This document shows, one piece after another, positions 830 through 40,299 of a DNA stretch of 40,299 nt. The number at the start of each line of letters is the position of its first letter. The stretch's first letter is position 1. The position numbers were made by a program, and so were the translations under genes. A model generated the notes under the pieces. The model made no database searches, had not been told where the DNA came from, and saw only the letters and a list, made by a program, of their open reading frames with translations. The DNA is from Escherichia phage UFJF_EcSW4: the sequence record PP856269, one strand, 5' to 3'.

Positions 830-859
830 TTGACAAGATGTAACGATAAGATGTAATAT
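830..859 (+). promoter_or_regulatory. Candidate host sigma70-type early promoter (TTGACA, 17-18 nt, TAATAT)
   Basis: Consensus -35 TTGACA at 830-835 and TGTAATAT at 852-859; resembles the T7 A2/A3 pattern (TTGACA...GTAAGAT) and sits about 180 bp upstream of the first early ORF. Confidence 0.5.
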
Positions 860-1292: not shown

Positions 1293-1375
1293 GAGTGATT
1301 AACTACAGGTCGTTAGACTGATAGCGGCCTGACTGATAGTCACTAACACATAATTAACTTTGAGAGGATATAACT

Positions 1376-1879
1376 ATGGAACGTAATGCTAACGCATACT
1401 ATGAGCTGCTGGCTGCAACCGTTGAGGCATTTATCGAGCGTATTCAGTACGACCACCTGACTCAAGATGATGACTACAGCGATGCGCTGCATGAGGTAGT
1501 AGACGGTCAGGTTCCACACTATTACCACGAGATTTTTACGGTGATGGCTGCTGATGGTATAGACCACGAGTTCGAAGACTCTGGGCTGATGCCTGAAACC
1601 AAGGACGTAACGCGTATACTACAAGCTCGCATCTATGAGGCGCTTTATAACGATGTGTCTAATAGCTTGGATGTAGTCTGGTTTGAGGATGAAGAGGCAG
1701 ACGAAGAGGATGAATATTGGGTAGTTGACGCTAAAACAGGCGCAATAATTGTGCAAGCTGTAGCTCTTGAGGTCGCTACTGCATGTGCCAAGGTCAACTA
1801 TGCAATAGGTCGCCACCTGAAGGTGGAAGACATCAATGATAACGTAGTGTTCGACCCTGCGGCTGAGGACTGCGAGTGA
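1376..1879 (+). CDS. 0.3: Ocr-like DNA-mimic anti-restriction protein (gp0.3 homolog) with a roughly 50-aa C-terminal extension
   Basis: 167-aa acidic protein; the segment [42 protein letters not shown] matches the T7 Ocr core ([42 protein letters not shown], from memory). T7 Ocr is 117 aa. Confidence 0.85.
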
Positions 1880-2028
1880 TGGTAACTTATGGTCTCTGCC
1901 AGCACCACGTCGCCAACGCCCGGCTTATGGTCAAGACCGGGCGGTTAACCCATGATGATACTATGCGTCTCCTGAAGGTGGTCTACAAGCGCCGCAAGCG
2001 CATACACGACAGTTTGCACGCTGAGTGA
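1879..2028 (+). CDS. Possible small basic protein, 49 aa, coupled to the Ocr stop (TGATG overlap)
   Basis: ATG at 1879 overlaps the Ocr TGA; [49 protein letters not shown]; below the ORF-track size cutoff. Confidence 0.3.
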   Translation: MVTYGLCQHHVANARLMVKTGRLTHDDTMRLLKVVYKRRKRIHDSLHAE

Positions 2029-2095
2029 TAAACGAGAGGTCATCGACTGATAGGTGGCCTCAAAGATTACCACTTACATTGATAGGAGAATTACT

Positions 2096-2263
2096 ATGAA
2101 ATTTACAATCATCGCACTTTACGTAACCATTATTCTATCTTGGCTTACTGCGGTGCTCACTGATGGTAACGCATTACGACTGGGCTGGCTGGCAGTGGAC
2201 ATTATATTCTCTCCGGTAGGTGTCGTGCGCGGTATCTTGATATGGATTGGACTGGCAGGATAA
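2096..2263 (+). CDS. Small hydrophobic (membrane) protein, about 55 aa; track ORF extends to a GTG at 2054
   Basis: ATG at 2096 is preceded by aggag at spacing 8; MKFTIIALYVTIILSWLTAVL... is predominantly hydrophobic, consistent with a membrane helix. Confidence 0.5.
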   Translation: MKFTIIALYVTIILSWLTAVLTDGNALRLGWLAVDIIFSPVGVVRGILIWIGLAG

Positions 2264-2266
2264 ACT

Positions 2267-2464
2267 ATGAGTCTTGCACTATTGATAGCAATAGGCTATG
2301 GACTTATCGCCTACGTGCTGGTGAGATACATCAACAAAGCGCGTAAAGTCTACAAATTCAACTATGTACGTCTGGGCCGCTGGACTGTACGTCAACCTAA
2401 CGGACGATTCATGCGCAACTTAGCGAACGTCTGGGATATAGCAACTATTGGGAGCAAACTGTAA
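2267..2464 (+). CDS. Hypothetical small protein, 65 aa, hydrophobic N-terminus
   Basis: ORF packed tightly after the previous gene; N-terminal LALLIAIGYGLIAYVLV stretch. Confidence 0.5.
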   Translation: MSLALLIAIGYGLIAYVLVRYINKARKVYKFNYVRLGRWTVRQPNGRFMRNLANVWDIATIGSKL

Positions 2465-2724
2465 TGAAAACCGTATACATTAACAAACCATCTAGCCATA
2501 GCCGTGTAGAGCAAATAGAGCGTGACATGCTCTTACATCGCCGCATGAGGGCTGAGGGCCATAAGTACGAACTGATGAGTCTGGCGTTTGGTGGACGACC
2601 GATCACTGACGATGGTAAACTTTTAGTCTCAGGCTGGAAGGCGATAGACCAACGGTCAACCATCAAGCACACGACTCACGGTGACTTCAGCCATCTCCAC
2701 GCTAACCCACTGATATGCAAGTGA
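2464..2724 (+). CDS. Hypothetical early protein, 86 aa
   Basis: Start overlaps the upstream stop (TAATG); occupies the position where T7 has genes 0.6/0.7 but is far too short to be the gp0.7 kinase. Confidence 0.5.
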   Translation: MKTVYINKPSSHSRVEQIERDMLLHRRMRAEGHKYELMSLAFGGRPITDDGKLLVSGWKAIDQRSTIKHTTHGDFSHLHANPLICK

Positions 2725-2729
2725 TTATG

Positions 2730-2752
2730 ACTTAACTATCACTATAGGACTC
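2730..2752 (+). promoter_or_regulatory. Phage RNAP promoter (CTTAACTATCACTATAGGAC), immediately upstream of the RNAP gene
   Basis: Matches the 11-copy consensus (T/A)AACTATCACTATAGG; predicted +1 G at 2747. Confidence 0.7.
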
Positions 2753-2821
2753 AAGGTCTAAGACTCCAAGTGAAAGACCAAAGAGACTTTAAGTGAAAGA
2801 CTAATAACAAGGACTTTAAGT

Positions 2822-5503
2822 ATGAGCGTCATCTCTATTGATAAACACGACTTCTCTGATGTGTCTAACGCCATTGAGCCGTTTAACCTGCTGGCTGACC
2901 ACTACGGGCAAGACCTTGCAGTCAAACAGCTTCAGCTTGAGCATGAGGCATACACTGAAGGCGAGCGACGTTTCATCAAAAACCTTGAGCGACAGACTGA
3001 GCGCGGGGAACTGGCAGACAATCAGGTCGCCAAGCCTTTGATGCAGACTCTGGTTCCTAAGATTGCGCAAGCCGTCAAGGAGTGGCACGAAGGTCCAGAC
3101 GGGAAGCTGTCAACCTCACGTCCGAGCGTAGCGTTCACCATGTTAAGCACTGAAGAGAAGGCCGTTAAAGACCGCTCTCTACGCATCTCCTGTGAGTCTG
3201 CTGCGGTCATCATACTGAAGGTCATACTCTCCAAGCTGGTCAAGCCTGAAGGTATACCGATTACACCGATGGCCTCCGCGATAGGTCGCACACTTGAGGA
3301 TGAAATCCGATTCGGTCGCATTCGTGACAAGGAGAAGGAGCACTTCAAGAAGGCGATAGCTGAGAACTTGAACAAGCGAGCTGGGGCATCCTACAAGAAA
3401 GCCTACATGCAAGCGGTCGAGGCATCCATGCTGGAGCAAGGCCAACTGGAAGATGCGTGGGGGAATTGGAGTCCTACAGAGGCTGTCCACGTTGGCATCA
3501 AGATGCTTGAGATTATCATCCAGTCGACGCAACTGGTCGAGCTTAAGCGCTACGGTGCTGGCAATGCAGCGGCTGACGTTGAGATGGTCCACCTGTCAGA
3601 CTTCTGGGTCAAGAAGATGGCACAACGCGGCTTTAGCCTTGCGGGTATCGCCCCAGTCTACCAACCTTGCGTCGTTCCACCTAAGCCGTGGACTGGTGTC
3701 GTAGGCGGTGGGTACTGGGCCAAAGGTCGCAGACCTCTACCACTGATTCGCTTAGGGTCTAAGTCTGCGGTAGCACGTTACGAAGATGTGTATATGCCTG
3801 AAGTATATGACGCTGTTAACATCATCCAGAATACACCTTGGAAAGTAAACAAGAAGGTTCTGGACGTGGTGAACATGGTCGAGAAGTTGAACAACACGCC
3901 TATTGATGATATCCCTCAGATGGAGCCACTGAAGCCTGAAGACTATGCAGGTGAGACTGAAGAGGAACTCAAGGCATGGAAGAAGGCTGCTGCTGGTATC
4001 TACCGCCGAGAGAAGGCCCGGCAGTCACGTAGATTGTCACTGAGCTTTATCGTTAACCAAGCGAACAAGTTCTCTCAGTTCAAGGCCATCTGGTTCCCGT
4101 ACAACATGGACTGGCGCGGTCGCGTCTACGCTGTGCCGATGTTCAACCCTCAGGGTAACGACATGCAAAAGGGTCTCCTGACTCTGGCAGTCGGTAAGCC
4201 TATTGGTGCTGATGGTTTCAAATGGCTGAAGGTCCACGGTGCAAACTGTGCGGGTGTCGATAAAGTCACCTTCGAGGAGCGCATCAAGTGGGTGGAAGAC
4301 AACCACGACAACATCATGGCTGCTGCTAAGGCACCGATGGATAGCATTGAGTGGTGGGGCAAGTTAGACTCTCCTTTCTGCTTCCTTGCGTTCTGCTTCG
4401 AGTATGCTGGCGTGATGCACCACGGATTGTCTTACTCCTGCTCGCTGCCGATAGCATTCGATGGGTCCTGCTCTGGGATTCAGCACTTTAGCGCGATGCT
4501 TCGTGATCACATCGGTGGACATGCAGTAAACCTGACGCCTTCCGGTAAGGTCCAAGACATCTACCGCATCGTGTCTAACCGCATTGAGGAAGAGCTTAAA
4601 GTCCTGCTGGTTAACGGCACGGACAACGAGATGGTAACTCACGAGGACAAGAAAACTGGTGAGATTACCGAGCGTCTCAAGCTGGGGACACGAGAGCTGG
4701 CCCGTCAGTGGCTGACCTACGGTATGTCACGAAAGGTCACTAAGCGTTCGGTCATGACTCTGGCCTACGGGTCGAAAGAGTACGGCTTCGCAGACCAAGT
4801 TTACGAGGACATCGTGATGCCAGCGATTGACTCAGGGTCTGGCGCTATGTTCACTGAACCAAGCCAAGCATCTCGCTTCATGGCTAAGATGATTTGGGAA
4901 GCTGTGAGTGTGACCGTAGTTGCTGCGGTTGACGCGATGAAATGGCTTCAGGGTGCTGCCAAGCTGCTGGCGGCTGAAGTGAAGGACAAGAAGACGGGTG
5001 AAATCCTGAAGCCTTGCCTTCCGGTACATTGGGTCACACCTGATGGGTTCCCGGTCTGGCAGGAATACCGCAAGAAGGATACCACTCGTCTGAACCTGAT
5101 GTTCTTAGGGTCCTTCAACCTTCAACCTACCGTCAACAAAGGTACTAAGAAAGAGCTGGACAAGCACAAGCAGGAGTCAGGCATTAGCCCGAACTTCGTC
5201 CACTCACAAGATGGTAGCCACCTCCGCAAGACTGTAGTCCATACTCACCGCAAGTATGGCGTGATGTCGTTCGCAGTGATTCACGATAGCTTCGGGACCA
5301 TCCCGGCTGACGCTGAGTATCTGTTCCGTGGGGTCCGTGAGACTATGGTCGAGACATACCGCGACAACGATGTGCTGCTTGACTTCTACGAGCAGTTTGA
5401 ATACCAGCTTCACGAGAGCCAGCGCGATAAGTTGCCAGAGCTTCCGAAGAAAGGTAAACTGAATATCGAAGACATCTTGTCTTCAGACTTTGCATTCGCT
5501 TAA
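2822..5503 (+). CDS. 1: Single-subunit DNA-directed RNA polymerase (T7 RNAP family)
   Basis: 893 aa; blocks such as PFCFLAFCFEYAGV, SCSGIQHFSAMLRD, RSVMTLAYGSKE..., HDSFGTIPADA and the C-terminal FAFA match T7/T3 RNAP recalled from memory. Confidence 0.97.
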   Translation: MSVISIDKHDFSDVSNAIEPFNLLADHYGQDLAVKQLQLEHEAYTEGERRFIKNLERQTERGELADNQVAKPLMQTLVPKIAQAVKEWHEGPDGKLSTSRPSVAFTMLSTEEKAVKDRSLRISCESAAVIILKVILSKLVKPEGIPITPMASAIGRTLEDEIRFGRIRDKEKEHFKKAIAENLNKRAGASYKKAYMQAVEASMLEQGQLEDAWGNWSPTEAVHVGIKMLEIIIQSTQLVELKRYGAGNAAADVEMVHLSDFWVKKMAQRGFSLAGIAPVYQPCVVPPKPWTGVVGGGYWAKGRRPLPLIRLGSKSAVARYEDVYMPEVYDAVNIIQNTPWKVNKKVLDVVNMVEKLNNTPIDDIPQMEPLKPEDYAGETEEELKAWKKAAAGIYRREKARQSRRLSLSFIVNQANKFSQFKAIWFPYNMDWRGRVYAVPMFNPQGNDMQKGLLTLAVGKPIGADGFKWLKVHGANCAGVDKVTFEERIKWVEDNHDNIMAAAKAPMDSIEWWGKLDSPFCFLAFCFEYAGVMHHGLSYSCSLPIAFDGSCSGIQHFSAMLRDHIGGHAVNLTPSGKVQDIYRIVSNRIEEELKVLLVNGTDNEMVTHEDKKTGEITERLKLGTRELARQWLTYGMSRKVTKRSVMTLAYGSKEYGFADQVYEDIVMPAIDSGSGAMFTEPSQASRFMAKMIWEAVSVTVVAAVDAMKWLQGAAKLLAAEVKDKKTGEILKPCLPVHWVTPDGFPVWQEYRKKDTTRLNLMFLGSFNLQPTVNKGTKKELDKHKQESGISPNFVHSQDGSHLRKTVVHTHRKYGVMSFAVIHDSFGTIPADAEYLFRGVRETMVETYRDNDVLLDFYEQFEYQLHESQRDKLPELPKKGKLNIEDILSSDFAFA

Positions 5504-40013: not shown

Positions 40014-40299
40014 CAAGAACCTCAAGTCTCCCCATAGGCCCTCTTTCAGTCTCGACCAAAGGCCCTACCCCAGTATATCATAAGGTTGGACCGATGGTCA
40101 AGACTTCAGGTCAACGATAGGTGGTGACTATGGCTTCGGGAAGGACGATAGGTGGTGACTATAGGCCCTCTTTCAGTCTCGACCAAAGGCCCTACCCCAG
40201 TATATCATAAGGTTGGACCGATGGTCAAGACTTCAGGTCAACGATAGGTGGTGACTATGGCTTCGGGAAGGACGATAGGTGGTGACTATTGGTCTGTCT
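40014..40299. repeat. Direct terminal repeat, right copy (identical to 1-286)
   Basis: Exact identity with the window start, including the internal 128-bp tandem duplication. Confidence 0.9.

Follow-up and report, generated by a model that had tools for sequence, protein, structure and literature searches.

Phage T7 Ocr, the product of gene 0.3 (gp0.3), is the textbook DNA mimic and is central to work on layered bacterial immunity, encompassing type I restriction-modification (R-M), BREX and the Ocr-sensing systems PARIS, Ronin and EcoR22I. Databases have listed a related gene 0.3, that of phage K1F, since 2005, routinely under the label 'Ocr-like anti-restriction'. Here we analyzed gene 0.3 of Escherichia phage UFJF_EcSW4 (sequence record PP856269), referring to the whole stretch of 40,299 nucleotides as the window. 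The gene occupies positions 1376..1879 of the plus strand, from an ATG at 1376 to a TGA at 1877-1879 (167 codons plus stop), and encodes an Ocr core followed by a C-terminal extension. The gene itself is known, and it does not constitute a new system; the new part is the C-terminal domain, for which we found no Pfam family, solved structure or description.

We read the gene 0.3 product as a two-module protein, in which an Ocr mimic carries a tethered accessory protein-binding domain that modulates the interactions of Ocr, and we assign this reading a probability of about 0.45. Three properties of the domain, namely its occurrence in cis with Ocr only, an invariant face and a fast-evolving helix surface, together suggest an accessory module that binds protein.

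An Ocr core, an acidic linker and a predicted mini-domain

The DNA-mimic core spans amino acids (aa) 1-104 (1376..1687, plus strand) and includes F54, L82 and a DVVWFE segment (aa 99-104). The gene 0.3 protein matches the Pfam ocr family (PF08684) over aa 8-94 with E=4e-30 and a score of 104.7 bits, well over the threshold of 25, and PHROG 2568, 'ocr-like anti-restriction', with E=4e-54, while the T7 Ocr chains 1S7Z and 2Y7C match it over aa 11-113 (E=1.9e-25), with aa 105-113 aligned merely as acidic low-complexity sequence. Across 52 aligned homologs, no variation is seen at F54, L82 or W102. No match was obtained to an S-adenosylmethionine (SAM) hydrolase/lyase family, such as would mark a SAM lyase of the T3 gp0.3 type, ocr being the sole Pfam match of the protein. 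These matches bear out a preliminary description of the locus, which had recognized an Ocr-type DNA mimic in a 167-aa open reading frame (ORF) at 1376-1879 and whose boundaries and C-terminal sequence agree with the sequence. Its statement that the first ~115 aa match T7 Ocr holds for the core and is slightly generous in extent, convincing homology ending near aa 94-104. It was also right that the protein has extra C-terminal residues, ~55 of them without a T7 counterpart, and that these are non-acidic and partly hydrophobic.

Directly behind the core lies a poly-acidic linker (aa 105-113, DEEADEEDE; 1688..1714, plus strand), in which eight of nine residues are acidic and which has a low predicted local distance difference test (pLDDT) score in the full-length AlphaFold2 (AF2) model. 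Net charge amounts to -18 over aa 1-104, -8 over the linker and -2 over aa 114-160. The total of -26 for aa 1-113 compares with -28 for the 117-aa T7 Ocr (the T7 sequence used agrees with the 1S7Z alignment). Because this charge is near that of the T7 protein, and because the Ocr proteins of K1-5 and Klebsiella P293 stop after the acidic run, aa 1-113 are a complete Ocr equivalent. By motif count, the spacer between VVW(F)E and YWVV ranges from 2 to 20 residues among 111 homologs, with 9 residues in 90 of them. It is always acidic, nearly absent in CLB_P1 and extended in Mt1B1_P3 by a duplicated EEEDEKA. Such a linker, variable in length but always acidic, is as expected of a flexible tether.

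The linker leads into a C-terminal mini-domain (aa 114-161; 1715..1858, plus strand). Modeled on its own with AF2, the extension adopts a compact beta-beta-alpha-beta-beta arrangement with a pLDDT of 89.7 and a predicted template modeling score (pTM) of 0.70, the predicted elements being beta1 (aa 114-118), beta2 (124-129), a helix (131-143), beta3 (148-152) and beta4 (157-159). The full-length model places the same secondary-structure elements in the extension, at a pLDDT of 83-89. On these models, the extension is predicted to be a folded, near-neutral and autonomous domain of ~47 residues.

In the full-length model the core comprises helices at aa 2-25, 35-59 and 75-96, with block mean pLDDT values of 44-81, that is, moderate to low. 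The K1F-type core departs from T7 after ~aa 94 and its helix D, predicted to end at aa 96, is shorter than that of T7. Judging from the strand pattern, the sheet under the single helix would moreover leave the partly hydrophobic residues Y114, V116, I124, V126 and V158 available to pack elsewhere. Both features would suit a domain of structural or housekeeping value only, one that provides stability, solubility or protease resistance, or links dimers end to end, and engages no new target. The Ocr proteins of K1-5 and of Klebsiella phages such as P293 nevertheless share this short core and lack the domain, which means that the core does not need it, and we consider a purely structural role improbable.

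Selection on the gene was estimated as the ratio of nonsynonymous to synonymous divergence (dN/dS), using the pooled Nei-Gojobori method on 15 codon-aligned genes (those of the window, K1F, CLB_P1, Mt1B1_P3, EPr2, pO91, yong1, KE14, PH1061, TH20, KKP_3263, ESh23 and three IMG/VR loci). Within the core the ratio was 0.17 (aa 1-96) and 0.11 (aa 97-104), compared with 0.27 for the linker (aa 105-113) and 0.32 for the extension (aa 114-160), which is under purifying selection. Inside the extension it differs among elements, with 0.27 for beta1-beta2 (114-129), 0.74 for the helix (130-144) and 0.12 for beta3-beta4 (145-160). Across 120 homologs the helix is amphipathic, with L131, A134, C137/A138 and Y142 fixed and positions 132, 133, 135, 140, 141 and 144 freely variable. 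Nearly invariant in the same set are T121-G122, G145, H147, E151-D152-I153-N154-D155 and D160-P161, which in the model sit in predicted turns and are probably exposed. The window carries a minor, slightly less acidic allele of the domain, with V126, V140 and N141 standing in for the E, D and H of most homologs.

Distribution, relatives and natural loss of the domain

At the DNA level, 71 phage records retain the full-length frame of gene 0.3. When the last 55 residues were searched by tblastn, 70 phage records were returned, with every match inside a gene annotated as 0.3 or Ocr-like; besides K1F (68% identity), the carriers include phages that infect Citrobacter, Salmonella, Hafnia, Providencia, Enterobacter and Klebsiella. 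In a collection of 5.8 billion proteins, the members of the best 120 clusters are all 162-179 aa long and comprise more than 100 distinct versions of the extension. An intact frame in more than 70 independently sequenced phages, combined with more than 100 variants, indicates that the extension is neither a chance ORF nor the product of a frame error. The sequencing or frame error that the preliminary description had considered is thereby excluded. Its companion concern, that homologs might reveal the extension to be common and unstructured, proved accurate as to frequency, the extension being common in Kayfunavirus, and mistaken as to structure, given the AF2 fold and the purifying selection.

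The same evidence bears on the notion that the extension is a read-through artefact or a neutral, unstructured tail. In favor of this notion, one natural allele with a single-G difference at the domain boundary splits the gene in two, showing that the boundary lies at a short G-run. The intact frame and its many variants, the dN/dS of 0.32 (0.12 in the beta3-beta4 hairpin), the confident fold and the persistence of the same sequence pattern in a diverged copy from Aeromonas-type phages refute it, leaving it a negligible likelihood.

The diverged copy occurs in ~10 records, including Aeromonas phages avDM11-UST and PZL-Ah1, Stenotrophomonas phage IME15, Escherichia phage Ebrios and, weakly, Kosakonia phage Kc166A. 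Its identity in the aligned extension is 29%, and the pattern of hydrophobic, glycine and proline residues is kept. A scan of IMG/VR yielded three loci, all of them Kayfunavirus-like, with the extension inside an Ocr-like gene. Altogether, ~80 of 585 Ocr-bearing phage records (about one in seven) carry the domain. The extension, which the preliminary description had called unusual, is so only relative to T7; in the genus Kayfunavirus, including its type phage K1F, it is the norm.

Searches for relatives of the domain apart from Ocr were largely negative. Neither the extension nor any of 13 diverse members matched Pfam, and the extension alone had no match in PHROGs. Foldseek found no significant structural neighbor for the extension in the PDB (best E 1.7), and the best match in BFVD had an E of 0.019, with some small uncharacterized phage proteins of like topology among the matches. 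These resemblances in fold reflect a common small alpha/beta shape and are not evidence of homology. Among the specific candidates assessed, the ClpS and L7/L12 C-terminal domain fold was rejected for want of a significant likeness in structure or sequence across the entire domain, T4 Dmd antitoxin and AcrIF9 for want of significant structural or sequence similarity, and TFIIH p8/TTD-A for want of a significant profile match. A profile of the extension run against 1.84 billion representative proteins gave four matches, of which both that were inspected are repeat proteins matching the region of NVVF.P and the acidic tail. This search detected no standalone or differently fused relative of the domain, and it is informative solely on such relatives, since at 50% clustering an extension-bearing Ocr is probably represented in the library by a shorter Ocr. 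Against the 5.8-billion collection, the profile recovered two short proteins of 59 aa and 41 aa. Neither looks like an independent gene, since the former represents the distal portion of a gene 0.3 split by a frameshift and the latter (P0126) starts inside the domain. The domain occurs only in cis with the Ocr core.

This distribution bears on a further explanation, namely that the domain is an independent second anti-defence effector fused to Ocr, a small inhibitor of another defence protein comparable to T4 Dmd or to anti-CRISPR proteins. If so, versions encoded separately or attached to other carriers should exist as well, and the searches turned up none; that the domain is never found alone weakens this explanation. 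The structural similarities to inhibitors of this kind are in turn weak and non-significant with Foldseek. We hold an independent effector to be unlikely.

Searches of 7.7 million PubMed Central papers and 0.34 million preprints on the gene 0.3 product of K1F, on Ocr in Kayfunavirus and on C-terminal domains of Ocr, a coverage that did not extend to the original K1F genome paper, turned up no description of the extension. Genome papers listing the 169-aa protein label it just 'DNA mimic ocr'. JSS1_004, considered as a literature case of an Ocr with a C-terminal domain, was rejected as an unrelated gp0.7 kinase. Several deposited genomes (e.g. IME177, ZH4, LM33_P1 [LT594300] and SHAK7854) label the Ocr-like gene as 'protein kinase' or as 'similar to N4-like RNA polymerase', labels that look like annotation errors spread between records.

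Natural alleles that have lost or truncated the domain were also identified. In three loci from Logan runs SRR33193082-84 (L019, at 2167-2680, together with L020 and L021), an additional G in TATTGGG, where the Tyr-Trp codons open the domain, shortens Ocr to 117 aa, and the extension persists directly behind it as an orphan ORF of 59 aa. Since this allele recurs in three runs from a single study, it is probably genuine and a natural truncation. In Salmonella phage STP-SP3 (Kayfunavirus; L003, 618-1001), a mosaic Ocr of 127 aa joins a T7-like distal helix D (QLTIDMWNNVDQIVDEYLETLED) to just the last 13 residues of the K1F-type protein (SVVFDHAAAEDCE), pointing to recombination or deletion within gene 0.3.

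A third allele involves the gene downstream. The 49-aa gp0.4-like gene of the window (1879..2028, plus strand; phrog_5058, E=1.6e-24) shares with gene 0.3 an 11-nucleotide direct repeat, CCTGAAGGTGG, which lies on the plus strand at 1816..1826 (codons 147-150 of gene 0.3) and, within gene 0.4, at 1971-1981, both copies having an identical codon phase, with two matches against 0.01 expected by chance. The natural fusion P0094, found in seven contigs of up to 38.9 kb, runs in frame from codon ~149 of gene 0.3 to the end of gene 0.4, and is explained by a deletion between the two copies of CCTGAAGGTGG. We also considered an origin of the extension itself by fusion with the downstream gene, which was rejected because the gp0.4-like gene is separate and intact at 1879-2028 and the rare P0094 is the only such fusion.

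Proposed role of the domain

Under the two-module reading, aa 1-113 would dimerise via F54 and L82, and the core would occupy the DNA grooves of the methyltransferase cores of type I R-M enzymes and of BREX PglX/BrxX, by analogy with T7 Ocr. The C-terminus of the last helix of T7 Ocr points away from the dimer centre, an orientation that would place one domain at each tip and two per dimer. At the tips of the mimic, genuine DNA would run on beyond the enzyme, so that appended domains need not disturb groove binding to type I R-M and BREX enzymes. The domain may provide a second contact to the blocked enzymes, raising avidity or widening or shifting the range of targets; it may, on the other hand, alter which host proteins are able to grasp Ocr. 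The suggestion of an additional function or altered target range in the preliminary description is thus plausible. The nearly invariant turns and the hairpin would then provide a fixed contact, and the variable face of the helix an adaptable one.

The same geometry admits a different role. The PARIS sensor AriA wedges an Ocr monomer between two coiled coils via F54 and L82, which in T7 Ocr are dimer-interface residues as well as the contact points for this sensor (PMC10802264). The domain could accordingly be pictured as a bulky, neutral cap at each tip that hinders Ocr-sensing systems (PARIS AriA, Ronin or those of the EcoR22I type) and still allows groove binding, which end-caps need not disturb where the mimic ends and DNA would continue. 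Since F54 and L82 are unchanged here and the sensed epitope is kept, the phage would benefit from other means of evasion. The proposal is nonetheless purely inferential: what the sensor contacts is the dimer interface at the centre, remote from the C-terminal tip, and linkers that range from almost none (CLB_P1) to ~20-25 residues argue against one precise steric geometry. We judge a dedicated cap to have a small chance of being correct.

The two-module reading can also be taken in a more specific form, in which the domain is an anti-defence module that acts only when tethered to the mimic, either extending Ocr to a defence system beyond the reach of T7 Ocr or blocking PARIS- or Ronin-like sensing, with the fast-evolving helix as its arms-race surface. 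This form is possible and, in our assessment, doubtful.

Several observations weigh against a modulating role for the domain. Most Ocr-bearing phages do without it, and it has been lost or truncated repeatedly, in STP-SP3, in the frameshift allele and in P0094; these two facts together suggest that it is not needed for core Ocr activity and that its role could be minor. The fast-evolving helix may reflect relaxed constraint and no arms race, and the full-length AF2 model has a mean pLDDT of 70, which is moderate. The domain is maintained by selection in most of the genus, yet it is dispensable.

If the domain does alter the targets that Ocr blocks or the systems that sense it, this would account for differences among T7-like genera in host range and in sensitivity to defence, and the anti-defence toolbox would gain a small modular part. 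Its carriers include K1F-like phages under development for therapy, and natural truncation mutants of the domain already exist. Should the domain do nothing measurable, the gene would be a normal Ocr.

Genome setting and comparison with known systems

The window is the genome of a T7-like phage of the genus Kayfunavirus (K1F-like). Positions 1-286 and 40014-40299 form an exact 286-bp direct terminal repeat, which indicates that the window is a complete T7-like genome. The terminal repeat holds an internal tandem duplication with a period of ~127 bp (21-167 versus 148-296, 96% identical), and a 12-nucleotide motif occurs three times in the non-coding region of the left end, at 320-331, 335-346 and 382-393.

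Gene 0.3 occupies an early position, between the left-end promoters and the gene for the T7-type RNA polymerase (ORF at 2822-5503), and is syntenic with K1F gene 0.3. The DNA of the region is 99.6% identical to that of Escherichia phage PhiNW-B1 and 97-99% identical to that of dozens of other isolates. A Shine-Dalgarno sequence read from the letters, GAGAGGA, lies at 1362..1368 on the plus strand, 7-8 nucleotides before the ATG. Farther upstream are an 84-aa ORF (1038-1292; phrog_10124, unknown function) and, in the early region, a sigma-70-type promoter-like site with the form TTGACA-18-TAATAT (830..859, plus strand; 10 of 12 consensus matches). The number of sigma-70-like sites in the early region is not above the shuffled expectation, and the site at 830..859 is a consensus match whose function is unproven.

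Between gene 0.3 and the polymerase gene (window positions 1880-2821) there is no gp0.7-type protein kinase/host shut-off gene, and the interval holds four small ORFs only (49, 55, 65 and 86 aa), all in PHROG families of unknown function. The first of these, the gp0.4-like ORF, had no match in the Pfam set used, which lacked PF26807. In loci L020 and L021, a 51-aa gene in the gp0.4 position carries PF26807 (Phage_T7_GP04).

The gp0.4-like gene begins within the end of gene 0.3. The acidic tail of the Ocr-like protein (AAEDCE plus stop; 1859..1879, plus strand) is also the initiation region of the downstream gene, whose Shine-Dalgarno sequence, GAGGA, lies at 1865-1869 and whose ATG (1879-1881) overlaps the TGA of gene 0.3 (1877-1879). 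Over the last seven codons of gene 0.3, synonymous divergence (pS) drops to 0.034, compared with ~0.3 elsewhere, and this near-zero synonymous change is due to the downstream Shine-Dalgarno sequence and overlapping ATG that lie there. From this arrangement of signals, the two genes are apparently translationally coupled. Conservation of the 'EDCE' end is, at least in part, imposed at the nucleotide level, and the overlap of initiation signals probably explains the conserved 'EDCE/DCDD' ends of related Ocr proteins.

Compared with described systems, the domain shares with ClpS, the L7/L12 C-terminal domain, T4 Dmd and AcrIF9 a likeness of shape only, with no significant sequence similarity and Foldseek E-values of at least 1.7; in the case of ClpS, just 41 of its ~80 residues superpose on the extension. 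With T7 Ocr (gp0.3, PF08684, 1S7Z), the gene 0.3 protein has in common a core of ~60% identity over aa 17-94, strong acidity, F54 and L82 and an early genomic position. The two differ in that helix D of T7 Ocr continues past ~aa 94 (DLWEDAEDLLNEYLEEVEE...), where the window protein has a 10-residue segment followed by DEEADEEDE, and in that T7 Ocr (117 aa) lacks both the 47-residue beta-beta-alpha-beta-beta domain and the short tail. The Ocr proteins of K1-5 (Vectrevirus, 110 aa) and Klebsiella P293 (116 aa) belong to the same core subtype, with ~80% identity through aa 103, the VVW motif and the acidic run, but they end right after that run and have no C-terminal domain.

The Ocr-like proteins of the Aeromonas phages, IME15, Ebrios and Kc166A share the core, the acidic linker and a diverged domain that keeps the pattern W/Y-V-[VI]...G...A...G...VE...V...P; they differ in that their domain is 29% identical and in belonging to another lineage, the Aeromonas phage being classed in Teseptimavirus. 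Closest of all are K1F gp0.3 and the Ocr-like proteins of other Kayfunavirus phages, which have the same two-module architecture, with identities of 92% in the core and 68% in the extension for K1F and of up to 98% overall for other isolates, and from which the window protein differs in nothing essential.
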